Source of the DNA: a virus
Reading direction: 5' to 3' (one strand)
DNA length: 26,648 nucleotides
UHGV virus genome: UHGV-0191547
In this document: one piece after another, positions 3,040-26,058 of the stretch
Layout of the letters: each line of letters begins with the position of its first letter
How positions within the stretch are numbered: the stretch's first letter is position 1
The notes under the pieces: model-generated
Database searches by the model: none
What the model saw: the letters and a program-made list of their open reading frames with translations, nothing else
What the model was told of the DNA's origin: nothing
Made by a program: the position numbers and the translations under genes

Positions 3040-3360
3040 TTATGCTATTTTTTCGTAAAGCACATTCATCTGGGTGCGAATCACTGTTAATATATTGATT
3101 GCTGCGTTCTTATCAATGCGTTTATTCGCTACTATTTTTGTTTTCCCATCAATAACAACCAGATCTGCGTGCAATACATGGTTGAAGTTGACAATGTAAT
3201 AATACTGTTTATCGCCAACATGTTGAACATATGCACCATTTAGATTTCCTTTATACCCACAATCACGCTCTGCGACACCGAAGTCAAATTCGCGGTTCAT
3301 CTTGCGATTATATGCTACTTGTTTATGTTCCCATTTTCTCATCCATTCATCGCGCTTCAT
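3040..3360 (-). CDS. Hypothetical protein, antisense cargo cassette A
   Basis: 106 aa ORF 9 nt downstream of the lipoprotein gene on the - strand, RBS AAGGGTGA; AT-rich by eye. Confidence 0.5.
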   Translation of the reverse strand: MKRDEWMRKWEHKQVAYNRKMNREFDFGVAERDCGYKGNLNGAYVQHVGDKQYYYIVNFNHVLHADLVVIDGKTKIVANKRIDKNAAINILTVIRTQMNVLYEKIA

Positions 3361-3369
3361 GTTTCACCC

Positions 3370-4029
3370 TTAATTCCAGTTGCAAGCGTTTTTTACTTTG
3401 TCGATGTGGTTATAAAGACCATCAATGTTAAACACTGCTTTCTCAATGTCGCCAGCTTCCGGCACTACTTCAATGATAAATTGTTTTTCGTTAACCAGAT
3501 TTTTAATCATTGGGATGGCTTTTTTGTCGTTCCATAATCCAAGAGCTTTATAGTTAGTTGACCGCCCCCATTCAGTGGCTACAGCTTTGTGATCGCCGAT
3601 CCGGTAGTTAATATAAGTAGCGTCCCCGGCGTCAGTTACACGGTGTGACCATGCTACGAACATTTTTGTTTTATTACCCTGGCAAGCAATTGTTAATACC
3701 GGTTTATTATTATCCTGTGCCTTCAGTGCCGGGAAGGCATCAAGACTTCCGCTAAAATGATCTGCTTTCACAAAAAGGAACACGTTTTTTGTGTCCTGCA
3801 TATCATCTTTTCTTTCGACCACAAGCCACTGTTTACCAGCTTTTTCTTTTGCTAACTGTGCCTCATATGCGGCTTGTTTTGCTTGTTGTTCCGCAAGCCA
3901 TTTAGCATTTTTCTCAGCCAATGCTTGTTGTTCTTGAGTGGTCACTATAGGCGCTTTTTCATTATCCTCATTGCAACCAACCAGACCCAATACCGCCGCA
4001 ATCATTGCCACTTTTGCTAACTGTTTCAT
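3370..4029 (-). CDS. Lipoprotein, antisense cargo cassette A
   Basis: 219 aa; N-terminus MKQLAKVAMIAAVLGLVGC is a signal peptide with lipobox L-V-G-C; Ala/Gln/Lys-rich predicted coiled segment after the lipidated Cys. Confidence 0.65.
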   Translation of the reverse strand: MKQLAKVAMIAAVLGLVGCNEDNEKAPIVTTQEQQALAEKNAKWLAEQQAKQAAYEAQLAKEKAGKQWLVVERKDDMQDTKNVFLFVKADHFSGSLDAFPALKAQDNNKPVLTIACQGNKTKMFVAWSHRVTDAGDATYINYRIGDHKAVATEWGRSTNYKALGLWNDKKAIPMIKNLVNEKQFIIEVVPEAGDIEKAVFNIDGLYNHIDKVKNACNWN

Positions 4030-4289: not shown

Positions 4290-6629
4290 ATGGCTACCAG
4301 TGTAGGTACAATTTATTACGAAGTTGATGCAAAAACTGGTCAACTTCTCGTTGCACAACGACAGGCAGACCAGGCCTTTGACCGTATAGAGCGCGGCGCA
4401 AAACAGGCTGACCGCCAGGTAAACACCCTGAAAACATCCATCAAGGCACTGACCAGGGTTATCCATTTGCTAATTGCTGCCGAGGCTGTGCGCCAATTTA
4501 TGGATATGGCGGAGCAAGCCAAAATGCTTCGCGTAAAAATCAAATTGCTTACAGGTGAAGCGGAGGCAACGGAACGGGTTTTCAACAGACTGAAAGAAAT
4601 ATCAAAAGAAACAGGCCAAAGCCTCAAGGATACTGGTGCCCTGTGGCAAGGTCTTGCTATATCGCTAAAAAACACATCCGCCACAGAAGGCCAGGTGCTC
4701 AACCTGGTCAGCACGCTGCAAAAACTTGGTAACTTGGGCGGCGTGTCTGCGGAACAACTATCAAACTCCATGCTTCAGTTCCGCCAGGCTATTGATGCTG
4801 GCGTGTTGCAGGCGGAAGAGTTCAACTCAATACGTGATAACACCCCAACAATCATACAGGAAATGGCCCGACAGATGGGGTTATCTATGGGGCAGTTCCG
4901 CGCCGAAATGCTGGACGGCAAGATCACGGCTGAAAGGATGCTCAACGCGATCCAGGCGGCTACGCAGGAAACAAACGAGAAGTTTGCACAGTTACCGCGC
5001 ACGTCCGGTATGGCTTTTAATGAGCTTAAAGTCGAGGTGATGGGACTTGTCGAACAACTTGATGATCTTTTCGGCATATCAGATGGCGTTGTGTCAGCTA
5101 TCGACTTAATAACTGGTGGCGTTGAGGGATTAGGTAAAGGCGCAAAATTCGCCGCAACCTGTTTCAATACACTAAAAACGGCTGGCAGTGAGTTTATCGA
5201 CATGTTTGATGATGTTGCTGTTAAAGCTGGTGAGGTGGCGGAAGAGATTATCAGGATGGTAACGCCAATCAAAGCGCTAATGGATGGCTACAAATGGATG
5301 AAGGAGATCATTGATAAACGCAAGAATGAGCTAAACAGCAACAACGAAAAGAAATTCGGCCCTACAGTCGGTAAGGTCATGACGTTTGCAAATGACATCA
5401 AAAATGCGACCGCCGCTTATGATGAGTTTATGCAGAAACAGGGTGAGGCTGATGACGGCAAGATCACCGGATTCGATCAGCCAGTTGGCAAGCCGAAAAA
5501 AGGGAAAAAAGACAAGAAATCTGAAGCTGATCGGCTTGGTGATGAAGGCATAAAAGTATCCGACCAGTACAACAAAGACGCCGCAGCTATGCGCAAAGCG
5601 TTAGAGAACGGCAAGGCCATTGATGCTGCATTCGCCCAGGGTAAAATCACTCTCCTTGAGTACCGCGCCGCGCAAAAAGGGATAGGTAAGGAACTGAAGG
5701 AAGAATTAGCGCAAATTCCGGTAGATGAATTGCGTGATAAATGGGCGCAAATAGTAAGCCCGATGGATCAGCTTAAAGGTGAGGTTGACCCTATCCAGCA
5801 GGTGCAGAATGAATGGGCCGTCCGTAAGCAAATGCTTATCGACCTGGGCGTTACTGAAGCGCAACAGAAACAGGAACTGTTAGCCTATGAGCAACAGATC
5901 CGTGATCTGAAGTGGGAACAGTGGCAGGCACAAAGCGATACAAACGGCCTTATCGGTGATTGCGTTAATGGCCTAAAAGGTGGTATGAGCAATGCACTTG
6001 TTGGCCTGTTAAATGGTACTCAATCATTGAGTGATGTTTTTGCTAACTTAGGCAGCAATATCCTCGGGAATATCGGTAACAGGCTTTCAGACATAGCTGC
6101 AAACTGGATAGCAGATCAGATCATGATGGAAACGCAAAGCAAAGCGACTCAGGCAAGTACCACGGCGGGCGCGGTAGCGGCGCAAGGCCAGATTGCTGCG
6201 GCGGCGGCCCCGGCGGCGGCGGCAACAGCGGCGTCAACTGGCGGCGCATGGGCGGCGGCTGGTTCTGCGGCACTCACTGCGATCATGTCGCTGGCTACGT
6301 CAATTTTCGGCGGCGGTCGCTTTAATGGTGGTAGCGTTATTGGTGGCAATATGTACCGCGTAGGGGAACACAACAGGCCGGAGCTATTCCAGACATCTAA
6401 CGGAAATCAATATATGATCCCAGGCGAGAATGGCAGGGTTATTCCTGGGCGTGATATTGGCGGTGGCGGCGGCATTAGTATGCCTGTCAATATCAACATT
6501 CAGACCACAAACGGATTTAGCGACGAAGACAGTCGCAGACTTGAGCAAACAATGGAACGTGTAGCAATGAAGATGATAACAAGGGAATCACAAAGACCTG
6601 GAGGAATATTGCAACCGCGCCGCAAATAA
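4290..6629 (+). CDS. Tail tape measure protein
   Basis: 779 aa, alpha-helical N-terminal two thirds, Ala/Gly-rich low-complexity tract (AAAAPAAAATAAS), located between chaperone and gpM homologue. Confidence 0.9.
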   Translation: MATSVGTIYYEVDAKTGQLLVAQRQADQAFDRIERGAKQADRQVNTLKTSIKALTRVIHLLIAAEAVRQFMDMAEQAKMLRVKIKLLTGEAEATERVFNRLKEISKETGQSLKDTGALWQGLAISLKNTSATEGQVLNLVSTLQKLGNLGGVSAEQLSNSMLQFRQAIDAGVLQAEEFNSIRDNTPTIIQEMARQMGLSMGQFRAEMLDGKITAERMLNAIQAATQETNEKFAQLPRTSGMAFNELKVEVMGLVEQLDDLFGISDGVVSAIDLITGGVEGLGKGAKFAATCFNTLKTAGSEFIDMFDDVAVKAGEVAEEIIRMVTPIKALMDGYKWMKEIIDKRKNELNSNNEKKFGPTVGKVMTFANDIKNATAAYDEFMQKQGEADDGKITGFDQPVGKPKKGKKDKKSEADRLGDEGIKVSDQYNKDAAAMRKALENGKAIDAAFAQGKITLLEYRAAQKGIGKELKEELAQIPVDELRDKWAQIVSPMDQLKGEVDPIQQVQNEWAVRKQMLIDLGVTEAQQKQELLAYEQQIRDLKWEQWQAQSDTNGLIGDCVNGLKGGMSNALVGLLNGTQSLSDVFANLGSNILGNIGNRLSDIAANWIADQIMMETQSKATQASTTAGAVAAQGQIAAAAAPAAAATAASTGGAWAAAGSAALTAIMSLATSIFGGGRFNGGSVIGGNMYRVGEHNRPELFQTSNGNQYMIPGENGRVIPGRDIGGGGGISMPVNINIQTTNGFSDEDSRRLEQTMERVAMKMITRESQRPGGILQPRRK

Positions 6630-6956: not shown

Positions 6957-7211
6957 TCACTTATGGCAACCGCGAACGCCAGACAATTCATTGAATTTAT
7001 GGTGTTCAACAATCACCCACTCTTTCAGATCCTGGCTATAGACTCGCCAGTCTAAATTGGCGCGGAAGGCGTAGCCGTAACCGTCTTTCAATTTTTTGGG
7101 TGACGCATTCTTGTTTAAAAACGCGTTCAAAAGTTCCTTTGCTTTTTTGACTACATGTCCCGGCGCGTTTTTCTGTGCTTTCAGATTTTTGTCAATCGCT
7201 ACCAGTTTCAT
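6957..7211 (-). CDS. Small protein with RelE/ParE-like toxin signature (candidate mRNA interferase)
   Basis: 84 aa; C-terminal KKLKDGYGYAFRANLDWRVYSQDLKEWVIVEHHKF resembles the RelE/ParE core pattern kLkG..g.yelRvgdyRviY....ilrigHRk recalled from memory. Confidence 0.4.
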   Translation of the reverse strand: MKLVAIDKNLKAQKNAPGHVVKKAKELLNAFLNKNASPKKLKDGYGYAFRANLDWRVYSQDLKEWVIVEHHKFNELSGVRGCHK

Positions 7212-7228
7212 AACTCACCCCATCATCC

Positions 7229-7384
7229 TTAGTTAAGTGCCTTCAGGAAGAAGTCCCGGTATTCATCTTCTTTTGCATTCATCATGAATTGACCGTATTT
7301 GAATGCGTCGTCGAAACCCTTAACGATTGCTATTTCCACTTGTTCGAATGCGTTGTTTAGCATTACCACTACATAGCGTTTCAT
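7229..7384 (-). CDS. Small protein (51 aa) upstream of the RelE/ParE-like gene; possible antitoxin partner
   Basis: Internal start MKRYVVVM chosen over the ORF-track start at 7459 because it has a strong RBS (GAAGGAGG, 6 nt spacing); the 7459 ATG lies inside the conserved promoter element. Confidence 0.4.
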   Translation of the reverse strand: MKRYVVVMLNNAFEQVEIAIVKGFDDAFKYGQFMMNAKEDEYRDFFLKALN

Positions 7385-7425
7385 TTTGGGCCTCCTTCGT
7401 TGGTACTGCTTTTCTTCTTGCTTTC

Positions 7426-7454
7426 TATATACATCTTGATGCGTGATATGTGAA
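7426..7454 (-). promoter_or_regulatory. Candidate sigma70 promoter for cassette B (TTCACA-N17-TATATA) with upstream CAAAATGG element
   Basis: - strand reads CAAAATGGC-TTCACA-17 nt-TATATA; 17 of 18 nt identical to the cassette A element at 4233-4250. Confidence 0.4.
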
Positions 7455-7553
7455 GCCATTTTGTAAACTAGCTATAATCATTGTGATGAAGATCTCATTT
7501 TTTGCGTAGAATCGCGTAAAAGTATATACAAAATGTAAATTATAGGGGGATTT

Positions 7554-8343: not shown

Positions 8344-8547
8344 TTAAGGTAACTCCACTTCGTTAAATGTAACAAGCACCCCTTGATTTTCTTTATTTAT
8401 AATTATGAAGGCATTAATTGAAGGCAGACATCTTTCCACGCGGTAAACGTCACCAATATCTAAACTGTAATATTCTGTTAATTCTCTATTGTTCCCTTTA
8501 GCAAAACCCGTAAACCTAACCATTTTTTGACCGTCGTACTTTAACAT
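8344..8547 (-). CDS. Hypothetical protein (67 aa), cassette C
   Basis: - strand ORF with AGGA RBS, tightly packed with neighbours; AT-rich. Confidence 0.45.
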   Translation of the reverse strand: MLKYDGQKMVRFTGFAKGNNRELTEYYSLDIGDVYRVERCLPSINAFIIINKENQGVLVTFNEVELP

Positions 8548-8555
8548 ATACAGTC

Positions 8556-8804
8556 CTATAGGTTATCACGCAGATAATTAACGCCTTTGTCAGTGACGAA
8601 TGAGTGATTAACCTGGTTTTCATCCGTCATGATGATGAATGACTTTTCCTGTAGGTATTTCGCTTTTGGGTACAGCGTTAAACAGACCTGGTACAGTATC
8701 CCGCGCTCAATCAGCAAATCAATAAATTCGTGCTCATGATAACCGACGAGGCGGGCGGCTTGTTTCAACGTGTACACATAATCGCCGTGATTGCGCCGCC
8801 CCAT
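8556..8804 (-). CDS. Hypothetical protein (82 aa), cassette C; possible helix-turn-helix
   Basis: Segment YTLKQAARLVGYHEHEFIDLLIERGIL has a helix-turn-helix-like pattern; no family recognised. Confidence 0.45.
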   Translation of the reverse strand: MGRRNHGDYVYTLKQAARLVGYHEHEFIDLLIERGILYQVCLTLYPKAKYLQEKSFIIMTDENQVNHSFVTDKGVNYLRDNL

Positions 8805-8813
8805 GTTGCCGCC

Positions 8814-9161
8814 TTATTTATCGAATGCGCCCAGGTTATCTATGCAGAAGTCTTTCGCAGCTTTTTCGTATTCGCGTTTTGCTTGCGGATCGTCTGCCGG
8901 GAAACCTTTTGCGTGTATTTCACCAGGGCAAGACTGATCCATAGAATCAGCAAATTCAACATTGACGTTAAAGTTAATATCTTTCGGATTCATGTTTTCC
9001 ACCTCATCAATTATCTGCACCGGATTAGCGGCATATTTCACTGGATGGCCTAAACTACATTCAAGAATCCTTCCTTCTTCCAAAGCTGCCTCTTCGCTAT
9101 CAAATAATCCGAAACACTCCTTGCAACCACTTAACCACACATCAAGACTATATTTTTGCAT
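8814..9161 (-). CDS. Hypothetical Cys-containing acidic protein (115 aa), cassette C
   Basis: - strand ORF with GAGAGG RBS; CKEC...C...SCPGEIH cysteines suggest possible metal binding. Confidence 0.5.
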   Translation of the reverse strand: MQKYSLDVWLSGCKECFGLFDSEEAALEEGRILECSLGHPVKYAANPVQIIDEVENMNPKDINFNVNVEFADSMDQSCPGEIHAKGFPADDPQAKREYEKAAKDFCIDNLGAFDK

Positions 9162-9173
9162 TTCGTTAACCTC

Positions 9174-9329
9174 TCATTTGACAGGTTCGATTCTGTACCC
9201 CAAAACGCGTTCGTCTTCAGCGAGTAATAGCGCGTCAGTCAGTGCCTCGCCTTCGTCTTTATACAGAGCTACAGTCATTTCCCTGCCACCTGACAGGAAT
9301 ACCTTCAACCTCCACACCTTATCAGCCAT
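9174..9329 (-). CDS. Hypothetical small protein (51 aa from MADKVWRL), first gene of cassette C
   Basis: Internal start preferred (RBS GGAGGTG, 6 nt spacing); the ORF-track start at 9404 overlaps the predicted -35. Confidence 0.4.
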   Translation of the reverse strand: MADKVWRLKVFLSGGREMTVALYKDEGEALTDALLLAEDERVLGYRIEPVK

Positions 9330-9375
9330 CTCACACCTCCGCGCCATTTTGTTAACTGTGCTTCCGTTTGAGTAA

Positions 9376-9404
9376 AATATACATATTGTATAAACCGCGA
9401 TCAA
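9376..9404 (-). promoter_or_regulatory. Candidate sigma70 promoter for cassette C (TTGATC-N17-TATATT) with upstream CCAAAATGG element
   Basis: - strand reads CCAAAATGGA-TTGATC-17 nt-TATATT; same architecture as the cassette A and B elements. Confidence 0.35.
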
Positions 9405-16761: not shown

Positions 16762-18552
16762 ATGATTTATACAACGGGAACAATTGCCATTAACGGCAAT
16801 ACTGTTACAGGCACGGGAACAAACTTTTCCGCGCCGCTTTCTCTCATCCGTGTAGGTTGCACGCTCATTGCCATTAGCAATCCTATCCAGATCTTTACCA
16901 TCACAGAAATTAAGAGCGGTACTGAACTGTCAGTGACGCCAGCGGCTAACCCTGCAATTGCTGCCGGGGCAAAATTCAGCATTCTGCTTTCTGACTCTAT
17001 CTCAGTTGATGGGCTTGCCCAGGATGTAGCGGAAACACTTCGTTTTTATCAGGAAAAAGAAGACGAAATATCCAGCGCAATAGATGGCAGCAATATTGGC
17101 TTAGGTCCAGAGCCGCGCGATTGCGTCGATATATCAGGCGATCCGTCTTCTTACGTTGGCTTTTTGCGCATAAAGGAAACGACTAAGGGTTTTCCTTCTG
17201 TAGCGGCTGGTGAATCATTTTTGAGTGGATTTATCTGTCAACGAGACACGACGCCTTCATATACAGGCGTCTTTGTCGGTTGGGCTACGCGATCACTTTA
17301 TACGTATACATGGGTCGCAACATCAGGTCCGAACTGGACACGACACGCAAGAAAAGATGAGGTGGATAGGCTTGTTCAAAGAACAGGAGAAACTCGCGTA
17401 CGCGCTCAAAACGCAAATAAATTCCTTACCGTCTATGATTCAGGATCGTGGGGTTATTATGACTCAGAGGCTAGTAAATGGCTACCGCTTCCAGTTCTTG
17501 CTGGAGGCACTGGTGCGGGAAACGCAGAAGAAGCAAGAAATAATTTAAATCTTGGTGAAAGCAACGCGGTTAAATTCAAAAACCTTACGTTAATAGGGGC
17601 GCTAGATGCAAATTTAGGCATGCTCGTAAAAACTGGAAGAGACTGGAATACTCAGCACACTGACAATATCCAAAAATTTATACCAATGGCAGGAAGCACA
17701 AACGGACCCGCCGGAGCAATGGTACTCGGTGGCTTCCATGTGCAATACAGCACAAATTACGCTGTGCAATTCGGGGGTCGAAATTCCGGTTTTTGGGGTA
17801 GAACAATTGAAAACGGAACAGTTCAGGAATGGCGTCAACTAGCTACGCTTAACACATCCGGTCAAAAATGGACTGCCGGTCAGCATTTTGTGACGACAAA
17901 AATTAACTCTTATGATTTCACAAGACGTTTAACTATCGATGTGATAGAAAACGCAAAAACAAACGCACGGTTACGCTTATGGGGATCAGAAACAAGGCAG
18001 TCCGTTTTAGAATATGGACTCTCGAACGCTGAAACCGATGAGTATAATACATATGGCTTTTATTGCCAGCTTAACCCAGACGGAGTAATTAGTTTTCAGG
18101 TTAACGGCGTAGTAAACTGCACAGCAGTTAATCAGACTTCAGATCGCGATCTGAAGGACAACATTCAGGTTATAGGTGATGCAACTGAAGCAATCCGTAA
18201 AATGAACGGGTACACCTACACCCTCAAGGAAAACGGCCTGCCTTACGCTGGCGTTATCGCTCAAGAGGTAATGGAGGCGCTGCCGGAGGCTGTGGGATCG
18301 TTTACTCATTACGGTAAAGCATTACAAGGCCCGACCACTGACGGCAACGAGCTACGCGAGGAAACGCGTTACCTCAATGTTGACTACGCTGCGGTGACTG
18401 GTTTACTTGTTCAGGTGGCACGCGAAACAGATAACCGCGTCACCGAACTGGAGGAAGAAAACGCCAGCTTACGAGCTAACATTGCCGTCATGGATGAGCG
18501 GATCACAAAACTTGAAGCGCTTGTCAGGCAGTTAACCGGAAGCGAAGAATAA
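16762..18552 (+). CDS. Tail fibre/tailspike protein with C-terminal intramolecular chaperone (peptidase S74-like) domain
   Basis: 596 aa; C-terminal TSDRDLKDNIQVIGDATEAIRKMNGYTY...YAGVIAQEV followed by a coiled coil is the S74 autoproteolytic chaperone signature. Confidence 0.75.
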   Translation: MIYTTGTIAINGNTVTGTGTNFSAPLSLIRVGCTLIAISNPIQIFTITEIKSGTELSVTPAANPAIAAGAKFSILLSDSISVDGLAQDVAETLRFYQEKEDEISSAIDGSNIGLGPEPRDCVDISGDPSSYVGFLRIKETTKGFPSVAAGESFLSGFICQRDTTPSYTGVFVGWATRSLYTYTWVATSGPNWTRHARKDEVDRLVQRTGETRVRAQNANKFLTVYDSGSWGYYDSEASKWLPLPVLAGGTGAGNAEEARNNLNLGESNAVKFKNLTLIGALDANLGMLVKTGRDWNTQHTDNIQKFIPMAGSTNGPAGAMVLGGFHVQYSTNYAVQFGGRNSGFWGRTIENGTVQEWRQLATLNTSGQKWTAGQHFVTTKINSYDFTRRLTIDVIENAKTNARLRLWGSETRQSVLEYGLSNAETDEYNTYGFYCQLNPDGVISFQVNGVVNCTAVNQTSDRDLKDNIQVIGDATEAIRKMNGYTYTLKENGLPYAGVIAQEVMEALPEAVGSFTHYGKALQGPTTDGNELREETRYLNVDYAAVTGLLVQVARETDNRVTELEEENASLRANIAVMDERITKLEALVRQLTGSEE

Positions 18553-18581
18553 GAGGTGATGTGCGAAGAACATCGCCGCGC

Positions 18582-18610
18582 GAAACGAGGCTAACGCCTC
18601 GTTTCTTTTT
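18582..18610 (+). terminator. Rho-independent terminator after the tail fibre gene
   Basis: GAAACGAGGC-taac-GCCTCGTTTC hairpin followed by TTTTT. Confidence 0.65.
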
Positions 18611-18864
18611 GTGTACCAAATAGTGACCAAAATGATAAATCAAAAACAAAAACAAAACATAACACATTGAATACAAATGAATTTTTCATTAAGTTATCCA
18701 TTCAAAAGATAAGTAGGTAACGCCATTTCTATCATTTCATATCGTGTCACATCGTCACCGTTTCACGTTGATTTCAAAAGAAATATTTATTCTATCGTGT
18801 CATATCGTTTTCTATCGTGATACTATCCATGCGTAAAATGTGTGTACCAAATAGTGACCAAATT
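18610..18864. promoter_or_regulatory. attP-like AT-rich region with a 22-bp perfect direct repeat and TATCGTG heptamer repeats
   Basis: TGTGTACCAAATAGTGACCAAA at 18610-18631 and 18841-18862; three or more TATCGTG copies in between; located immediately 5' of int. Confidence 0.4.
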
Positions 18865-20064
18865 ATGCTTACAGATACCAAATTACGAAACATCCACGGC
18901 AAGCCATATGACGGCCCGGAAGAAGTCCCGGACGCGGGCGGATTGTCTGCCAGGATAAGCCCGCGCGGAGTTATATCTTTCCAGTATCGCTACCGATTCA
19001 ACGGCAAGCCTCGACGGATGAAGATCGGCACATACGGAGAAATAACACTCAAAGAAGCGCGGGCGGCGGTGGCGGAGCATAAGGAAGTCTTAAACTCAGG
19101 ACGAGATCCATCGATCGTAAAAAGAATGAAATTGTCACGCGTTACGACACGGGCAACGATTGAGGATATTGTGAGGGAATACATGGAATCACCGCAGGCA
19201 AGAAACATGGTCAACTATAAGCAAGTCGAGGCGATGCTAAGTAAGCACATTGTCAGACCATGCGGTAGCTATATCGTCGATGATATGGACTCCATAATGT
19301 GGGAGGGGATTTTTAGAAAGGTAGCCAATGGTGGCGCGCCCGTTCAGGCCGGGATAGTCTTAAACAGGATGAAGGCGGTGATAAAATATGCCATGCGACG
19401 CCGCCGCGTGGAGCGTGACGACATATCATTACTACGCGTGAAAGACGTAGGCAAAAACCCGGCACAAAGGAAACGCGTCTTATCAATACAAGAGATTCAC
19501 CATCTAATCAGCATTATAGACAGTTCAAAAATGGCGCGGCTAAATCAGATATTGATGAAGCTGATTATATTCACCGGATGCAGAACAAGCGAACTAACAA
19601 ACGCAAGGCGCGAGCATTTCGATCTTGATAACTGTGTGTGGACCGTGCCGGGCGCATTGAGTAAGAACAGAAACGAGTTTAAACGCGGTTTATCCGCCGT
19701 TAGCGTTGATTTATTGCGTGAAGCTATGGATTTGCACGGCTTTAATTTTATCTTCGTTCCCGTGCTTTCTGGAAGGGATGAAGCGGTAGACAGGAGCGTG
19801 CCGAAAACAGCCGCAAGGGATTTGATGCTAAGGATGGGCGGCGAGCCGTGGTCGTGTCACGACTTGCGCCGCACTGTAAGGACAAACCTTTCAGCGCTTG
19901 GCATTGCGCCGCACGTAGCAGAAAAGGTTTTAGGTCATAAACTGGCGGGAATGATGGCTATATATGATCAGTATGATTACGTGAAGGAGCAAATAGAGGC
20001 GATGAATAAACTGGCTGATTACTACATGAAGCCCATTGATTTACAAAATGAAATAACGTCCTGA
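18865..20064 (+). CDS. int: Tyrosine recombinase / integrase, P4 type
   Basis: Start chosen at MLTDTKLRN; N-terminal arm-binding-like segment GGLSARISPRGVISFQYRYRFNGK; C-terminal HDLRRT...LGH...Y catalytic box. Confidence 0.9.
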   Translation: MLTDTKLRNIHGKPYDGPEEVPDAGGLSARISPRGVISFQYRYRFNGKPRRMKIGTYGEITLKEARAAVAEHKEVLNSGRDPSIVKRMKLSRVTTRATIEDIVREYMESPQARNMVNYKQVEAMLSKHIVRPCGSYIVDDMDSIMWEGIFRKVANGGAPVQAGIVLNRMKAVIKYAMRRRRVERDDISLLRVKDVGKNPAQRKRVLSIQEIHHLISIIDSSKMARLNQILMKLIIFTGCRTSELTNARREHFDLDNCVWTVPGALSKNRNEFKRGLSAVSVDLLREAMDLHGFNFIFVPVLSGRDEAVDRSVPKTAARDLMLRMGGEPWSCHDLRRTVRTNLSALGIAPHVAEKVLGHKLAGMMAIYDQYDYVKEQIEAMNKLADYYMKPIDLQNEITS

Positions 20065-20240
20065 TAACGGTAAAGAGATCCGCCGCGCTTTAACGCTGGC
20101 ATCCCCTTAACAGGTTCAGGGAAAGGAGTTCCCGCATCTTTCCATTTTTTAACGAGCTTAAAAAAGGCGGACTTGCTAAGCCCGCCTAACATTTTTTGCA
20201 CTTGCTCGCGATTAATAAGTATTGTCCCGATCTTATCCAT
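20022..20240 (-). CDS. alpA: AlpA-family excisionase / transcriptional regulator
   Basis: 72 aa with LINREQVQKMLGGLSKSAFFKLVKK helix-turn-helix typical of AlpA/Xis-like proteins; convergent with int, 3' ends overlap by 43 bp. Confidence 0.75.
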   Translation of the reverse strand: MDKIGTILINREQVQKMLGGLSKSAFFKLVKKWKDAGTPFPEPVKGMPALKRGGSLYRYQDVISFCKSMGFM

Positions 20241-20890
20241 TACTTATCACCATTGTAATTAGTAAAAGGAATATCGCCATTAATAATGGCTTTTGCCATA
20301 TTGCGATAATCACACGAATAATCGTTTTCAGTTGAAAAATTAATATCGTCGGCGGCATCACTTCCCATCACTTCACCCGCCAGAGCCTTAGCAATTTTCG
20401 CAATAGCCTTATCGATTGGGTTAACGTGCAAAAAATAATTGTAGATACCCCATCTGATCGTGGACTCGACAGATTCAGAGCCTTTCTCAACATAAACACC
20501 GTATTCACTGCCGATGAATTTAAACATGATTGTTCCGTAGTGATAACCATCAGAATAATAACAATCAAGCCACACGCCGCATGGCGGCTTTTCTCCTGGC
20601 TTCCATTCCGTTTTTTCTGGTTGCGTTTCGCAGTCGCAGCGTTCATCTTCGATTAATTCATCAATAACTTCACTTTCTTTATTCATACCGTCATCATCCT
20701 TTTCAGAGAAACGTATAAAGCGCCACGTATTAGCCATCAACGTATAAGATTCGCCGCCAACCTTAGATCCTGCGTAATACTCCGTACCAAAATCGTAATA
20801 GCTCGAAAACGTTGTCACTTCGAAAGGCGGAATATCAACGCGGAACCTGTGAAGCATTGTGCCTATTGCACGAGGTGTTTTATTTGCCAT
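20240..20890 (-). CDS. Hypothetical acidic protein (216 aa) with a CDCE...C cysteine cluster
   Basis: - strand ORF; its stop overlaps the alpA start; no motif recognised. Confidence 0.55.
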   Translation of the reverse strand: MANKTPRAIGTMLHRFRVDIPPFEVTTFSSYYDFGTEYYAGSKVGGESYTLMANTWRFIRFSEKDDDGMNKESEVIDELIEDERCDCETQPEKTEWKPGEKPPCGVWLDCYYSDGYHYGTIMFKFIGSEYGVYVEKGSESVESTIRWGIYNYFLHVNPIDKAIAKIAKALAGEVMGSDAADDINFSTENDYSCDYRNMAKAIINGDIPFTNYNGDK

Positions 20891-20891
20891 A

Positions 20892-21068
20892 TTACGCCAC
20901 CGTTACATTGTCAACTTTGATAAAGTATTCAGGGTGATTTTCTATTTCGTGCTTGAAGTGCGCGTGACACAATCGCCACTCCCGCGCCTGGTTGTGGAGG
21001 TAATAAACATATTCGCCATCAACCTTATACAAAATTCCTGTAGGTTTAGCCATGTAATAACGCACCAT
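20892..21068 (-). CDS. Small hypothetical protein (58 aa; start at MVRYYMAK)
   Basis: Internal start with a GGGGG RBS, two nt after the ninB stop; the longer track ORF 20892-21122 would overlap ninB. Confidence 0.4.
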   Translation of the reverse strand: MVRYYMAKPTGILYKVDGEYVYYLHNQAREWRLCHAHFKHEIENHPEYFIKVDNVTVA

Positions 21069-21070
21069 TA

Positions 21071-21499
21071 TTACCCCCAGCGTTTTATGAATTCCTCGTT
21101 TAATTTCGTATCGCCAGACCATTGAACATCATGTTCAGCGCCGAACGAGTAGATCAGCTCGATTAGTTCACTGAATTCTGATTTACTCATCCGGCTGGTT
21201 GATGTCCCCAATACAACAAAGCCGGATTTATCCAGGTTAGGGACGACGCCATATTTCTTAAGCCCGGCAGTAAATACCGCTTTCCAGTCTTCCGGCGACA
21301 GCTTCTTACCGTACCAATTAACCTGATCGCTAATGTCGGTTAACAGCGCCCAAAGCAACGCGTTTTGGCTTAGCGAGCGGGTTTTCTCCTGAATGGTGAT
21401 TATCAGCGGGCTTTTGCTATCAGGCTGGATCTCTCTTATCTGCCTGATAGCATTTTCTTTCACTGCGTCGTTGACTATCTCAAATCTAATTTGCCTCAT
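21071..21499 (-). CDS. ninB: NinB/Orf recombination protein
   Basis: 142 aa; blocks SLSQNALLWALLTDISDQVNWYGK, EDWKAVFTAGLK and GFVVLGTSTSRMSKSEFSELIELI align with recalled lambda NinB. Confidence 0.85.
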   Translation of the reverse strand: MRQIRFEIVNDAVKENAIRQIREIQPDSKSPLIITIQEKTRSLSQNALLWALLTDISDQVNWYGKKLSPEDWKAVFTAGLKKYGVVPNLDKSGFVVLGTSTSRMSKSEFSELIELIYSFGAEHDVQWSGDTKLNEEFIKRWG

Positions 21500-21693
21500 G
21501 ATACACCGTTACTATTTCGCCATATAGCCCGCGCATACATAATCTCCTGCAAAGAAATTAGCCGCGAGCTTGTCATGTATTTTTCCTTTAATCTTTTCAT
21601 ATCAACCGTGACAGGCTTATCAGGATCATCGCCGCGCATGTATTCCGCGATCGTGCTTAAATCCTCCACGGTCAATTCTAAATCCTTGTCCAT
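21496..21693 (-). CDS. Small hypothetical protein (65 aa)
   Basis: - strand ORF; start/stop overlap with neighbours, so translationally coupled. Confidence 0.45.
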   Translation of the reverse strand: MDKDLELTVEDLSTIAEYMRGDDPDKPVTVDMKRLKEKYMTSSRLISLQEIMYARAIWRNSNGVS

Positions 21694-21702
21694 AATTCCC
21701 CC

Positions 21703-21909
21703 TTACACAATCCGCATTGTGTTTCGCAATTCCCCACGCAGCGCCCGCAATGCATCGTGCATTGGCACAAAAACCCGGTTAAATTTTACGTGTTTATATT
21801 TCCGCATCAGTGGCGGTGTATACACCTTTGCGTCGTATACTTCCCACGGATAATAAACGCGCGTATCGTCGACAAACGTTTCAACTGAATAAAAGATTAC
21901 CCGTCTCAT
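21703..21909 (-). CDS. Small hypothetical protein (68 aa)
   Basis: - strand ORF with a 4-bp overlap with the upstream gene. Confidence 0.45.
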   Translation of the reverse strand: MRRVIFYSVETFVDDTRVYYPWEVYDAKVYTPPLMRKYKHVKFNRVFVPMHDALRALRGELRNTMRIV

Positions 21910-22499
21910 AATTCTAACCCCGTTTCACCGTTAAGTTTTTCGATCTCAAATACTGGTTTATCCGGTAACAGGCCGTTATTTTTCCGGTATTCATTCAGGC
22001 GGCTGTCAAAATCAAACGCGAGATCATTAGCGTGACCAAAGCGACCAGGTTTAAACAGTGAGTAAAAATTAAGGCCGTGTTTATTGGTATCTATGCAAAG
22101 CGTTTCATCCAGCACCATTAAACGCAGCGTGCGCGAAAGGTAATTCCACGGAATGCCAGTTTCCGCGCTAATATCTCTCATTCGCTTTCTAACGTTGTAG
22201 TCAGTAAATAACGCGGCTACACGCTCGCGTCGTTGTTCGTATAAATATTTAATTCGATAGCCCAGCAAGCGGCGGCGCGGGCCAAAATATGTATACACCC
22301 GCTCAACCAGATTAGTGTCGATCAGGTGTTTAACTGTTTCCGGCAAGCATCCGGCTTCGTCGTATTCCGCTGATAATCCTGTTTTCTGGCGTAGCTGGTG
22401 CATTGTTGCGATGCCATCAAGTTCAAGGATATTGATAATTTTTGCTTCAAGTTCAATGCTCATTGTTTTTCGCCTCGTTTTAAGCGCGAAAACAGCCAC
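21906..22499 (-). CDS. Hypothetical protein (197 aa), possible winged-helix N-terminus
   Basis: Follows the helicase gene; N-terminal IINILELDGIATMHQLRQKTGLS looks like a winged helix; the true start may be the internal MSIELEAK. Confidence 0.5.
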   Translation of the reverse strand: MAVFALKTRRKTMSIELEAKIINILELDGIATMHQLRQKTGLSAEYDEAGCLPETVKHLIDTNLVERVYTYFGPRRRLLGYRIKYLYEQRRERVAALFTDYNVRKRMRDISAETGIPWNYLSRTLRLMVLDETLCIDTNKHGLNFYSLFKPGRFGHANDLAFDFDSRLNEYRKNNGLLPDKPVFEIEKLNGETGLEL

Positions 22500-22542
22500 C
22501 AGAAAGCGGTCAACTTTCCGGTAAGCCGTTTGCTCGAGTTAA

Positions 22543-23964
22543 TTAAAAAGATGCGTTATTCTGGTTATTTCGTGGGGAGAATCGGCTTGTCGCCGGACGT
22601 TGTTGCATTGACTGAATGCAAGCGGACGCCGCGCGGGCCTGGTCGCATGGGATGATGTTGCCGTTATCGTCAAACCGCTGGTAAACAGTCCCCGTTTTCC
22701 CGTGACGGTTTTTTGAAACGATGATCTCCATATATTCGCGGGCAACCGATTGTTCGTTGTAGTAGCCGTCGCGGTAGACCATGATGATCCGGTCTGCGTC
22801 CTGTTCAAGATTACCGGAATCACGCAGATCAGAATTGTTCGGGCGCTTGTTCGGTCGTTCCTCAACGCGGCGGGATAATTGCGCCAGCGCCGCCACTGGC
22901 ACGCGCAACTCTTTCGCCATCATTTTCAATGACCACGACAATTGCCCTACGGCGAGATCATGACGTTCGGCCTTAGCCAGCTTCATTAACCCGATGTAGT
23001 CAATCATTACCATCCCCAGGTTAGGATGGTCCTGTTTCATCCGTTCGACGGTGGCGCGTATTTCCTCGACCGTTAACTGCGATGCGTCAACAATCCACAC
23101 ATCGAGATCGGCAAGGGCACTCATTCCCTGGGCGACGTGCGCCCAACCTTCGTCATCCAGTTTTACCGGATTACGTAGGCAATCCGTTGATAAGTTCCCA
23201 GCGCCAGCGATAGCACGTTCAGTCATCTGATCGAGCGACATTTCAAGCGTGAACAGCAAAACGCCGACCCGCTGACCTTCGCCGCCAGGGTATGGACGTT
23301 CAGCCGCCGCGCGGGCAATTGCCAACGCCAACGCCGATTTACCAGACCCCGGGCGTCCGGCGATAAGCACCAGATCAGTAGCGTTAATGCCGCCTAACAT
23401 TTCGTCGAGTGGGTCAATCCCTGTTTTGATGTTGTCAGAGTTCACGCCACACTCCATGCGTTTACTTAGCACTTCCGTGTATTCCTGGACCGCATCGCGC
23501 AACAGCACCGGGATAATTTGATCTTTTGTTACCTTTAATTTTGAATACCGGGAATCAAAATCTTTCATCGTCTCTTTGACGACTTCAAGCGTCCCTGTTT
23601 CCAGCTTGTAGCGAATGTCTTCCATTAGTTCCAGCATTTGCCGCCGCTGGTGTTCTTCCTGTAGTAGTTGAGCATATCCTTTTAGGTTGGCAGCAGAAGG
23701 ACACGATCGCGCCGTTTGCATCAGCGGTACAAAATTTTCGTTGCCAATCTCATCACCAACCAGCAAGGCGTCGATAAGATTTCTGTTTCTGGCTTGCGCC
23801 CGGATAATTTCAAAAGCCCGCTTATATAGCGGAATAGTGAACACTTCAGGATCAAGCGTAGCGAGAACATCCTGCGCGTTAGGAGTAAGCCCACCTAACA
23901 GCAGGCCACCGATAACCGCCGATTCTCTTTCTTGCCGCAATGAGTTTACTTGTTCGGTTATCAT
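22543..23964 (-). CDS. DnaB-family replicative DNA helicase
   Basis: 473 aa; DnaB-like N-terminal domain, Walker A GRPGSGKS, RecA-like core. Confidence 0.85.
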   Translation of the reverse strand: MITEQVNSLRQERESAVIGGLLLGGLTPNAQDVLATLDPEVFTIPLYKRAFEIIRAQARNRNLIDALLVGDEIGNENFVPLMQTARSCPSAANLKGYAQLLQEEHQRRQMLELMEDIRYKLETGTLEVVKETMKDFDSRYSKLKVTKDQIIPVLLRDAVQEYTEVLSKRMECGVNSDNIKTGIDPLDEMLGGINATDLVLIAGRPGSGKSALALAIARAAAERPYPGGEGQRVGVLLFTLEMSLDQMTERAIAGAGNLSTDCLRNPVKLDDEGWAHVAQGMSALADLDVWIVDASQLTVEEIRATVERMKQDHPNLGMVMIDYIGLMKLAKAERHDLAVGQLSWSLKMMAKELRVPVAALAQLSRRVEERPNKRPNNSDLRDSGNLEQDADRIIMVYRDGYYNEQSVAREYMEIIVSKNRHGKTGTVYQRFDDNGNIIPCDQARAASACIQSMQQRPATSRFSPRNNQNNASF

Positions 23965-25140: not shown

Positions 25141-26058
25141 TCAGCAAACAATCTCTTTATATGCTTCTTCTACCATGTCGAATACTTCAGACCTGTAATA
25201 AAAAAATTCTTCGCTACCGCTAAATTTTGCAGGAAACTTGATTTTATAATTGCTGAAAGCCTTATGCATTGTGCTTTCTAATTTATACATATTTCCGGTT
25301 GGCCCTTCTAACGTTTTCACGATATGCAAATCAGGAATTCTAATACCTGCTTTATGTGCGCTTTTTAATATATCATTTCTTCGCTTATTCTCCTTAGTGC
25401 TTACACCGATTTTCATTTGTGTAGGTACTTCCAGATCGTCAACCATGATGTAAAGTTTGCCGCGCTCATGTGATAAGAAACCAATTTTTGCACATTTAGG
25501 ACAACCTTTACCCTGTTTTAGGTTGTGAGGTCTAACAGACCATTCATGATCACAAACCTTGCAGCGGCATAATACATTCTTAAAATTACTAGTGATCTCA
25601 CCCAATACTTCAACATCAGGGTTAACCTTTGAGATAGCTAAAACTTGATCTTCATGTGTTAACTTCGTATTTCCAGCGCATTTCGGACAACTGCGCCCGC
25701 GCTTAAGGTGGGCAGGTATAGCAAACCATTCATGATCACAAACCTTGCAGCGGCATAACACATTCTTAATGCTATTAGTGATCTCACCCAATACTTCAAC
25801 ATCAGGGTTAACCTTTGAGATAGCCGTGACTTGTTCTTTGTGTGATAATGTTCTGCTTTGCGCTCGTTTTAGTTTCGCACATTTCGGGCAGCCGCAACCG
25901 TGCTTAAGATTGTTAGGTTTAGCCGACCATTCATGATCACAAACCTTGCAGCGGCATAATACTTTTGTGTCTGTGTTTATTATTTCTCCCAGCACTTCAA
26001 CATCAGGATTAATTTTCGCAATAGCCGCAATTTGTTCTTCGTGTGTTAACTTACGCAT
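25141..26058 (-). CDS. Triple zinc-ribbon repeat protein with C-terminal T5orf172-like domain
   Basis: 305 aa; three copies of VLCRCKVCDHEW...G.GCPKCA about 62 aa apart, then LYIMVDD...KIGVST...FSGSEEFFY resembling the T5orf172 fold. Confidence 0.65.
   Translation of the reverse strand: MRKLTHEEQIAAIAKINPDVEVLGEIINTDTKVLCRCKVCDHEWSAKPNNLKHGCGCPKCAKLKRAQSRTLSHKEQVTAISKVNPDVEVLGEITNSIKNVLCRCKVCDHEWFAIPAHLKRGRSCPKCAGNTKLTHEDQVLAISKVNPDVEVLGEITSNFKNVLCRCKVCDHEWSVRPHNLKQGKGCPKCAKIGFLSHERGKLYIMVDDLEVPTQMKIGVSTKENKRRNDILKSAHKAGIRIPDLHIVKTLEGPTGNMYKLESTMHKAFSNYKIKFPAKFSGSEEFFYYRSEVFDMVEEAYKEIVC
25539..26025 (-). repeat. Three tandem intragenic repeats of 186-201 bp encoding the zinc-ribbon modules
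   Basis: Units start at about 25539, 25725 and 25926; the first two are about 95 percent identical over the first 100 nt. Confidence 0.8.

Follow-up and report, generated by a model that had tools for sequence, protein, structure and literature searches.

We identified two genuine, selected protein-coding genes located distally in the leftward early operon of a temperate coliphage of the mEpimmI group (mEp021-like). The larger encodes a 216-aa product built from swappable domain variants, which is the unusual trait of an otherwise ordinary hypothetical early gene. The window, by which we mean the whole stretch of DNA analyzed, comprises 26,648 nt of virus genome UHGV-0191547. The 216-aa protein is shown or predicted to be soluble, acidic, modular and non-enzymatic-looking. 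As things stand, it and the 58-aa protein encoded upstream are products of ordinary lineage-specific early phage genes without an assignable function.

Gene boundaries and operon layout

The early-left arm of the window is ordered as helicase, wHTH protein, two small ORFs and ninB, followed by the 58-aa and 216-aa genes and an excisionase-like gene (Table 1). Junctions between the last of these are tight. The ATG of the 58-aa gene lies 2 nt past the ninB stop in the sequence GGGGGTAATAATG, which allows GGGGG to serve as its Shine-Dalgarno. The TAA of the same gene precedes the ATG of the 216-aa gene by 1 nt, and in TAATG the TAA of the 216-aa gene and the ATG of the 72-aa helix-turn-helix (HTH) ORF have one base in common. 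A sequence-only reading of this DNA had described an acidic 216-aa protein overlapping the start of the next gene and a 58-aa protein coupled to ninB, and both descriptions are borne out. The span that it gave, 20240-21122, holds as far as the placement of the ORFs is concerned and fails at its upper bound: position 21122 is the upper end of a more extended ORF of 76 aa, which begins with 18 codons inside ninB, and the 58-aa start is backed by relatives and by PGAP.

Table 1. Coordinates of the genes and protein domains in the window.
Feature	Coordinates	Strand	Basis and remarks
Gene for 216-aa acidic modular protein	20240..20890	-	ATG start; ORF list and sequence; homologue of mEp021_03 / WP_255141406.1
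N-terminal beta-rich domain, aa 1-62	20705..20890	-	Alignments; allele clustering of 237 homologues; two major alleles ~45% identical
Acidic linker, aa 63-103	20582..20704	-	Nearly invariant; KDDDGMNKESEVIDELIEDERCDCE...EW.PGE.PP; predicted disordered or short helix
Variable middle domain, aa 104-157	20420..20581	-	SH3/Tudor/Sm-like small beta-barrel, five- to six-stranded (AF2); confident fold ~aa 92-157
C-terminal helical domain, aa 158-216	20243..20419	-	Conserved DYRNMA.AII.G.I; 2-3 alleles
Gene for 58-aa protein	20892..21068	-	Between ninB and 216-aa gene; PGAP CDS WP_169072551.1 in strain MLI107
ninB/orf recombination mediator (context)	21071..21499	-	Upstream, same operon; Pfam NinB PF05772 E 1.3e-46; PHROG 72 E 1e-43
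72-aa basic HTH protein, probable excisionase/RDF (context)	20022..20240	-	Downstream gene
Tyrosine integrase (context)	18817..20064	+	Pfam Arm-DNA-bind_3 1.7e-19, Phage_integrase 6.6e-17; annotated in MLI107

Between positions 18400 and 23000 we found no promoter-like sites on the minus strand, and Rfam and tRNA scans of the whole window returned no matches. With 1-2 nt or overlapping junctions and no minus-strand promoter-like site nearby, the 58-aa and 216-aa genes most likely share the antiterminated early transcript of ninB and xis. Antitermination in this phage group is of the N type and involves Gp17/nutL (PMC11893012).

At its 3' end the 72-aa gene runs 43 nt into int, which is convergent with it; PGAP starts the integrase at an ATG equivalent to window position 18865. 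The neighbor had been labeled alpA, an excisionase gene. At the family level, the match to AlpA (PF05930) is below threshold (E 0.19; 12 bits versus a cut-off of 21). The protein matches PHROG 4745 'DNA binding protein' (3.8e-4) and is 45% identical to mEp021_02, which itself matches HTH_23 at 6e-7 and HTH_17 at 0.035. Among loci having both genes, each xis allele type goes with one integrase type, with no exceptions (int at 90% or more pairs with xis at 95% or more; int at ~49% pairs with xis at 44-49%), a pairing that supports the role of recombination directionality factor (RDF). Thus, the 72-aa HTH protein is a probable excisionase/RDF.

Both ORFs are genes under selection

Between the window and mEp010, the 58-aa gene differs by 16 synonymous and 3 non-synonymous changes (pN/pS 0.04), and pN/pS of the 216-aa gene is 0.16-0.35 in each domain. 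The order ninB-58-216-xis-int was fixed in all 43 of the related loci that span the region. PGAP independently annotates both genes in strain MLI107, and the 58-aa allele of Ecol_244, at 53% identity, is still exactly 58 codons long. The view that both ORFs are spurious or decaying, without function, can call on the failure to place either gene in any family, and on the calling of the 58-aa ORF as a protein in only one cluster of a 5.8-billion-protein collection. Nevertheless, this view is almost certainly wrong. Purifying selection is strong, and the substitution pattern already refutes it; moreover, length is kept in alleles merely 47-53% identical, Shine-Dalgarno sequences are conserved, junctions are tight, and one domain of the 216-aa protein has a confident fold prediction.

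Distribution in mEpimmI-type phages

In sequence searches, both families were restricted to mEpimmI-type phages of E. coli and Shigella, with members in mEp021, mEp013, MagusPhagus and an MLI107 prophage, and all sources label both proteins 'hypothetical'. Members of the 216-aa family occurred in 7 of 50,697 phage records, all of them mEp phages or MagusPhagus, and in all phages of the mEpimmI group that were checked. As an annotated CDS the gene was present in MagusPhagus, mEp013, mEp010, mEp554 and mEp021 and in prophages of MLI107, Ecol_244, MS 21-1 and LSU61. Sequence searches returned 400-430 homologous clusters (E 1e-147 to 1e-109), the named ones all being E. coli/Shigella 'hypothetical' proteins. 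An HMM search of 1.84 billion (1.84e9) protein representatives produced 10 matches, all of the same family; therefore, no deeper profile could be built.

The window protein aligns end to end with mEp021_03 (AXN54122.1; 47% identity) and others, with the same domain order. Gene, position and domain plan are shared with homologues in mEp010, mEp013, mEp044, mEp515, mEp554 and MagusPhagus and with WP_255141406.1 of the E. coli MLI107 prophage, at 47-99% identity. Relative to these named homologues, the window gene differs in how its domain alleles are combined; among the 20 combinations, the one it carries is the most frequent. Homologues of the 58-aa protein (mEp010_05 / WP_169072551.1) are 53-97% identical to the window copy, and the gene was found at 34 IMG/VR loci, all on phage contigs of 13-77 kb (47-57 kb in most cases) that preserve the gene order. 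Departures from the common plan were also seen. Contig L010 carries only a 127-aa form of the 216-aa family protein, and the 127-aa variant (P0126) keeps the C-terminal domain and is missing the linker and barrel, leaving N and C domains only. One related phage has a Rha/antirepressor-like ORF in place of the 58-aa gene, together with a 216-family gene devoid of linker and barrel.

None of the mEp-group homologues of either gene has a described function, and the text and supplements of the paper on the mEpimmI group are silent on both (PMC11893012). In the human gut, mEpimmI phages reportedly match lambdoid phages in frequency (PMC11893012), and it would therefore be useful to have a function for the 216-aa gene, which is highly variable yet present in all members checked.

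Domain architecture of the 216-aa protein

The window protein has a pI of 4.59, with 37 D+E versus 22 K+R. Acidity is kept among 237 homologues (pI 4.5-5.1) and derives mostly from the linker, whose median net charge in this set is -10. The linker sequence (KDDDGMNKESEIIDELIEDER) is nearly invariant, displays the lowest column entropy in the protein and includes an amphipathic stretch, ESEIIDELIEDE; AF2 pLDDT was below 50 for residues 64-91.

A first AF2 run on 20 near-identical sequences reached a pLDDT of 53, at which its Foldseek matches to PafBC and eS4 are meaningless, and they were set aside. For the N-terminal domain, AF2 predicted beta strands at low confidence (pLDDT 37-69 over the two runs), a model that is unreliable. 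The later run used 75 sequences. It predicted C-terminal helices at residues 158-175, 177-181 and 190-203 with pLDDT 73-79, and residues 92-157 were modeled with pLDDT 82-90. The middle domain also has the highest entropy in the protein. The modeled fold of residues 92-157 gives local superpositions on SH3-like small beta-barrels, namely the PHF1/PHF19 Tudor domain, Sm/Hfq, the retroviral integrase C-terminal domain and eL14/KOW. Foldseek matches to the PHF19/PHF1 Tudor structure 6wau_D (TMt 0.60, rmsd 3.2 A over 52 columns), to Hfq (TMt 0.52-0.53, rmsd 2.9 A) and to eL14 were local and not significant, the best PDB E value being 0.055 and TM relative to the query ~0.2. Identity to these barrels is only 6-17%, with no sequence similarity, and the likeness indicates a fold class rather than a family and carries no functional inference. 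SH3-like barrels are generic and may bind peptides, nucleic acid or nothing in particular.

Some apparent relationships were rejected. Internal duplication (N domain versus barrel, or N versus C domain) and kinship of the 58-aa protein with the barrel or N domain each had an hhalign probability below 0.1%. The resemblance of residues 205-209, GDIPF, to the end of the E. coli SSB tail (DIPF) is coincidental, the motif being internal and the commoner C allele reading GCIGH.

Cysteines of the window protein lie at positions 85, 87, 104, 110 and 193, and the CDCE motif of the sequence-only reading corresponds to residues 85-88. The CDCE...C cluster is present in the window copy; it is not conserved. 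Among the 237 homologues, cysteine is retained at these positions in 27% (C85), 96% (C87), 65% (C104), 86% (C110) and 66% (C193), replacements include H/R/N, V/L and F/L, and whole alleles carry Leu, Val or Phe. The conservation expected of zinc or iron-sulfur ligands was not found, and by this measure the cysteines are not a metal site. These data bear on a proposal that acidity and the CDCE...C motif together might suggest, in which the 216-aa product counters restriction as a DNA mimic like ArdA or Ocr, or is a zinc protein built on the Cys cluster. Like Ocr and ArdA, the protein is acidic overall and early expressed, and its gene occupies an arm in which lambdoid phages keep host-takeover genes, those of lambda being gam, kil and ral. 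However, negative charge is concentrated in one disordered linker of ~40 residues instead of being spread across a folded surface, and the predicted barrel and helical architecture differs from the folds of Ocr and ArdA. Furthermore, searches of Pfam, PHROGs, NCBIfam and PADLOC at E values up to 10 matched neither the window protein nor 11 other alleles to ArdA, Ocr, ArdB or other anti-defense or defense families. With the Cys ligands poorly conserved as well, we consider this proposal very improbable.

Searches for a known family

Neither protein had a match at full length in Pfam, PHROGs, NCBIfam or PADLOC, nor did any of 12 alleles or the domains searched singly, and PDB sequence searches with single sequences and the 75-sequence profile returned noise only. 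This agrees with the earlier view that no motif supports a specific call for either gene: both are without assignment. Homology to a known housekeeping phage protein, which that reading had named as grounds for abandoning its proposal, was likewise negative in all libraries searched. The segment W..GE.PP..VWL had suggested DUF551 (PF04448), a beta domain of the phage nin region; as an identity for the barrel it was rejected, since neither the complete protein nor any of seven barrel alleles searched separately matched it with E values up to 10.

The 58-aa gene is comparable in size and ninB adjacency to those of the small lambda nin-region proteins NinD, NinE, NinF and NinH. Unlike these, its product has no Nin-family match at E 0.1 or better in Pfam or 0.01 or better in PHROGs, and NCBIfam was negative. 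A His/Cys-rich stretch in the window copy (CHAHFKHEIENH) is not kept in the Ecol_244 allele (CQCYYLRDIRNH).

Allelic diversity and domain swapping

Clustering of the 237 homologues resolved four alleles of the N domain (two major), two of the linker (232 of 237 sequences in one), eight of the barrel at a 70% identity threshold and three of the C domain. The 20 combinations in which these occur indicate domain-by-domain reshuffling. Mean pN was 0.22 for the 216-aa gene as opposed to 0.033 for ninB and 0.024 for the helicase, with pS of 0.37-0.53 in all. The 216-aa protein has thus diverged 7-9 times as much as ninB or the helicase and ranks among the most divergent of the early-left operon. In the linker, mean pN was 0.10 and mean pS 0.47, and constraint therefore falls on the protein rather than the DNA. 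A cis-acting DNA site in this segment, like ori inside lambda O, was rejected since synonymous sites are free to vary. Pairwise Nei-Gojobori comparisons detected no positive selection in the 216-aa gene (pN/pS below 1 in 98-100% of unsaturated pairs). Diversity of the 216-aa gene reflects old alleles exchanged by recombination; an arms race is not demonstrable.

Reshuffling bears on two alternative roles. In the first, the 58-aa and 216-aa proteins are recombination or replication accessory factors acting with NinB/Orf, for example to help load a recombinase or SSB onto ssDNA or to modulate it there, with the barrel binding nucleic acid or an SSB-like tail. Adjacency to ninB is invariant and packing tight, the 216-aa gene is in all group members checked, and Sm, Tudor and OB-like barrels are often nucleic-acid binders. 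The arm has also been placed in the replication/recombination cluster (PMC11893012). On the other hand, a NinB partner should vary less: NinB is 95-100% conserved in all loci but one, whereas the 216-aa protein is 47-99% conserved and swaps domains freely. A pI of 4.5-5.1 is unusual for a DNA binder, homology to recombination families is absent from Pfam, PHROGs and NCBIfam, and the related phage with the Rha/antirepressor-like ORF dispenses with the 58-aa gene, the linker and the barrel. We judge an accessory role of this kind unlikely. In the second, the 216-aa protein would assist or regulate its Xis-like and Int neighbors, controlling directionality or timing. The 216-aa gene ends within the start codon of the xis-like gene directly downstream, and it always lies beside the int/xis module. 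Yet 216-aa alleles do not follow the co-variation of int and xis: the two N-domain alleles, and several of those of the barrel, are each found alongside either int/xis type. The protein is, in addition, acidic and without a DNA-binding motif. A helper role is accordingly quite improbable.

Discussion

By combining comparative sequence data with structure prediction, we arrive at a tentative reading, held at somewhat less than even chances, in which the 216-aa protein is a non-enzymatic binder, possibly host-directed, and the 58-aa protein a small binder or partner. We infer that the 216-aa protein would act through binding, not catalysis. Its invariant acidic segment may dock on a host or phage protein, at a basic surface that is conserved and probably binds nucleic acid, with the exchangeable barrel and N domain giving a variable second contact. 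The likeliest target would be a host factor that the phage encounters early in the lytic cycle or on induction, as part of host takeover or counter-defense in the broad sense, and the 58-aa protein might be a small beta-rich partner or an independent small binder. Diversity and domain reshuffling of the 216-aa gene are compatible with a host-interaction role. Of the two roles for which the sequence-only reading had put these genes forward, host interaction is thus compatible with the divergence, and anti-restriction is without positive support. Several observations temper the host-directed reading. The fold matches are statistically insignificant and SH3-like barrels generic, positive selection was not detected, presence in every group phage checked is less typical of anti-defense cargo, and the invariant synteny with ninB fits a recombination role equally well.

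A more elaborate form of the host-directed reading would make the 216-aa protein the first of a new modular class of host-interference proteins. The acidic segment would dock on a conserved host protein that handles nucleic acid, such as a nuclease, defense sensor or nucleoid protein, and exchangeable cassettes of the barrel and N domain would redirect or adjust the inhibitor to suit variable host alleles, with the 58-aa protein as co-factor. We consider this form distinctly unlikely. Should the 216-aa protein prove to be a host-directed binder in the simpler sense, its layout, an invariant acidic docking segment between exchangeable small domains, would make it a tidy model of how an inhibitor made by temperate phages is diversified through domain swapping. 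Meanwhile, removal of the Cys-cluster lead, fixed gene boundaries and the exhaustion of homology-based methods are gains of the analysis.

Both genes have counterparts in position among lambda ea8.5, ea22, orf61/63/60a, gam and kil and P22 eaA-eaI and abc1/2, which likewise lie in an N-antiterminated leftward operon between recombination genes and xis/int. Early-left genes beside xis in lambda and P22 are non-essential, small and lineage-restricted, mostly of unknown function. The 216-aa and 58-aa genes differ in having no sequence relationship with them (PHROGs and Pfam negative). Unlike most of these genes, the 216-aa gene is present in every group phage checked and is mosaic by domain.

Two selected early genes between ninB and the xis-like gene

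Four genes are tightly packed on the minus strand at 20022-21499 (see Table). At the ninB/58-aa junction, GGGGGTAATAATG, 2 nt separate the ninB stop from the 58-aa start; in TAATATG a single nucleotide separates the 58-aa stop from the 216-aa start, and in TAATG the stop of the 216-aa gene and the start of the HTH gene overlap. The sequence-only reading had described this overlap and the 216-aa protein correctly (pI 4.59; Cys at 85, 87, 104, 110 and 193). Its end coordinate of 21122 for the region came from a 76-aa extension into ninB; relatives and PGAP favour the 58-aa start.

Table. Features of the window and modules of the 216-aa protein
Feature	Position	Strand	Description
ninB	21071-21499	minus	142 aa; Pfam NinB E 1.3e-46; PHROG 72 E 1e-43
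58-aa ORF	20892-21068	minus	
216-aa ORF	20240-20890	minus	
N-terminal domain	aa 1-62		4 clusters, 2 major, ~45% identical; beta-rich
Linker	aa 63-103		232/237 in one cluster; KDDDGMNKESEIIDELIEDER.DC ... EW..GE.PP; median net charge -10
Middle domain	aa 104-157		8 clusters; highest column entropy
C-terminal domain	aa 158-216		2-3 clusters; conserved DYRNMA.AII.G.I
72-aa basic HTH ORF (xis-like)	20022-20240	minus	
Terminator-like hairpin	20165-20187	minus	10-bp stem, 6 G-C pairs, then TTTTTT
Tyrosine integrase (int)	18817-20064	plus	converges on operon
22-nt perfect direct repeat, TGTGTACCAAATAGTGACCAAA	18610-18631, 18841-18862		
29-nt imperfect repeat	18727-18755, 18790-18818		
106-aa ORF	3040-3360	minus	
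219-aa ORF	3370-4029	minus	T6SS VasI/EvfG-family domain, PF11319, E 2e-14
84-aa ParE-like toxin	6957-7211	minus	PF24732, E 1e-7
76-aa ORF	7229-7459	minus	no assignment
82-aa ORF	8556-8804	minus	sole match KilAC/ANT antirepressor domain, PF03374, E 2e-6
305-aa early protein	25141-26058	minus	three DUF4379 treble-clef zinc-finger stretches; CapR homology and T5orf172 (GIY-YIG-like) domains

Both ORFs are real, selected, closely packed and co-located early genes specific to a phage lineage, and their dismissal as junk is hardly credible. Between the window and mEp010, the 58-aa gene carries 16 synonymous and 3 non-synonymous differences (pN/pS 0.04), and the Ecol_244 allele has only 53% identity yet exactly 58 codons. 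In the 216-aa gene, pN/pS over unsaturated pairs is 0.23 for the N domain, 0.23 for the linker, 0.35 for the middle and 0.16 for the C domain. The order ninB-58-216-xis-int holds in 34 of 34 IMG/VR loci and in all phage and prophage loci examined save L010, a 53-kb contig of a related phage (Logan SRR32406413). At 4517-5637 of that contig, a 246-aa ORF that by eye looks Rha/antirepressor-like replaces the 58-aa gene, and the 216-aa family is shrunk to a natural 127-aa variant with N and C domains only. Directly upstream of ninB, a DNA methyltransferase is inserted in mEp021 and a BRO-N protein in the MS 21-1 prophage. This identifies a cargo hot spot there.

The 216-aa protein is modular

When 237 full-length homologues were aligned, with allele clusters separated below 70% identity, the 216-aa protein fell into the four modules of the Table. 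Because 20 combinations of module alleles occur, the gene is reshuffled module by module. Synonymous divergence is similar across the operon (mean pS 0.37-0.53); mean pN of the 216-aa gene is 0.22 versus 0.024 for the helicase and 0.033 for ninB, on par with int (0.185) and xis (0.20), which occur as distinct specificity types. Conservation of the linker acts on protein and not on DNA: with a mean pN of 0.10 against a mean pS of 0.47, no cis-acting DNA element can be hidden in it. Only the mosaic build of the protein, arranged about one invariant acidic segment, lifts the gene above a routine "hypothetical protein".

The CDCE...C cluster singled out from the sequence is present in the window copy but is not conserved among the 237 homologues. 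Cysteine occurs at position 85 in 27%, 87 in 96%, 104 in 65%, 110 in 86% and 193 in 66%, and whole alleles have Leu, Val or Phe at 104 and 110. Judged from the alignment, the cluster is not a conserved metal site. Nor is the His/Cys-rich stretch of the 58-aa protein kept in the divergent Ecol_244 allele. That the 216-aa product is a zinc-cluster protein or a DNA-mimic anti-restriction protein is very improbable.

At aa 205-209 (20264-20278), the window C-terminal allele reads GDIPF. DIPF forms the last four residues of the E. coli SSB tail. Resemblance to that tail is probably chance, given the internal position and a commoner allele that reads GCIGH.

Homology and predicted structure

Neither protein matched a family in Pfam, PHROG, NCBIfam or PADLOC, and nor did any of 12 alleles or the domains taken singly, in line with the first impression that no motif supports a specific call. 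PDB sequence and profile searches gave noise only. Scanned in full with an HMM, 1.84 billion representative proteins yielded 10, all of the 216-aa family and most truncated or frameshifted. The family is encoded in only 7 of 50,697 phage records; among 5,426 complete E. coli genomes, 50 have a match to at least part of the locus, ~30 of them in the ninB to 216-aa part. Named homologues all come from E. coli or Shigella and are called "hypothetical protein", and the 58-aa family is likewise restricted to contigs of mEpimmI type, the group of temperate coliphages that includes mEp021 and mEp010.

AF2 models of the 216-aa protein reached pLDDT 53 with a shallow alignment and a mean of 66.6 with 75 diverse homologues. 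The latter predicted a barrel of five to six strands at aa 92-157 (pLDDT 82-90), C-terminal helices (73-79) and a disordered linker at aa 64-91; the N-terminal model is unreliable. Foldseek found no significant match in the PDB (best E 0.055); the remote homology and structure searches suggested by the sequence-only reading yielded no family. Compact local superpositions, none significant, were all with SH3-like small barrels, among them the PHF19/PHF1 Tudor domain (TMt 0.60, rmsd 3.2 A, 52 columns) and Hfq (TMt 0.52-0.53). Within that group, retroviral integrase gave a short local match (54 columns, rmsd 4.6 A) and eL14 only long, loose alignments. Best matches in the viral library were uncharacterised proteins (E 2.4e-4, TM ~0.3). 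An SH3-like small-barrel fold class is plausible for the modelled aa 92-157 and implies no function.

Homology searches are thus exhausted, and functional family membership could be established for neither gene. Both belong to uncharacterised families already deposited (mEp021_03/WP_255141406.1 for the 216-aa protein; mEp010_05/WP_169072551.1 for the 58-aa protein) and are filed in a loose known class, lineage-specific early-operon phage proteins. In position they recall the non-essential genes of the early-left region in lambda and P22, but share no sequence relationship with them.

Candidate functions

Both proteins look non-enzymatic. The 216-aa product may be a binding or adaptor protein whose invariant segment, acidic and amphipathic, would make contact with a conserved basic surface, while the interchangeable barrel and N-domain would supply a variable second contact. 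Because allelic diversity is high beside very conserved neighbours, a host target, in takeover or broad-sense counter-defence, is tentatively the single most likely class; this retains the host-interaction half of the earlier proposal and leaves little of its anti-restriction half. No positive selection was detected in the 216-aa gene, and an arms race is therefore not demonstrated. An accessory role with NinB in recombination or replication fits the synteny, but is unlikely in view of the conservation contrast with NinB and the acidity of the protein. It is quite improbable that the protein helps Int/Xis, as int and xis alleles co-vary perfectly and 216-aa alleles do not follow. Probability left over from the named readings falls to something else.

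Integrase, xis-like gene and transcription

Across 44 loci, xis-like and int alleles co-vary without exception: ~95-100% identity in the former accompanies at least 90% in the latter, and 44-49% accompanies ~49%. Such pairing is good comparative evidence for the 72-aa HTH protein as the cognate recombination directionality factor, even though it falls below the Pfam threshold for AlpA, the name given to it initially. The xis-like gene and int converge with a 43-nt overlap of their 3' ends at 20022-20064, also present in mEp013, mEp010, mEp021, MagusPhagus and the MLI107, Ecol_244 and MS 21-1 prophages, an arrangement in which int and early-left transcripts might interfere with each other as antisense RNAs. 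Copies of TGTGTACCAAATAGTGACCAAA flank the intergenic stretch from the tail-fibre terminator to the PGAP int start (18865), and the 29-nt repeat lies within; these repeats probably serve as attP arm sites or in regulation.

With a prophage in E. coli MLI107 the region shares 98.8% identity, and in parts it is 87-96% identical to MagusPhagus, mEp013, mEp010 and mEp044; mEp554, mEp021 and mEp515 match on the ninB side only. The mEpimmI phages, described in 2025, are Nus-dependent non-lambdoid temperate coliphages whose N-like antiterminator Gp17 acts at nutL, nutR1 and nutR2 (PMC11893012). No sigma-70-like site was found on the minus strand at 18400-23000, and the simplest reading is therefore that the 58-aa and 216-aa genes lie distally in an antiterminated leftward early transcript. 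The strong terminator-like hairpin lies inside the xis-like ORF, 53 nt past the ATG; a scan of the corresponding mEp021 region found none like it. If functional, it would confine Xis production to antiterminated transcripts.

Other genes in the window

The 106-aa and 219-aa ORFs, side by side on the opposite strand within the tail-gene module, are a moron-like insertion. The ParE-like gene and the 76-aa ORF preceding it form a probable toxin-antitoxin pair amid tail genes. The KilAC/ANT ORF is one of four small ORFs that follow one another on the minus strand (8344-9404). A homologue of the 305-aa protein is named "zinc-ribbon domain-containing protein" by PGAP.
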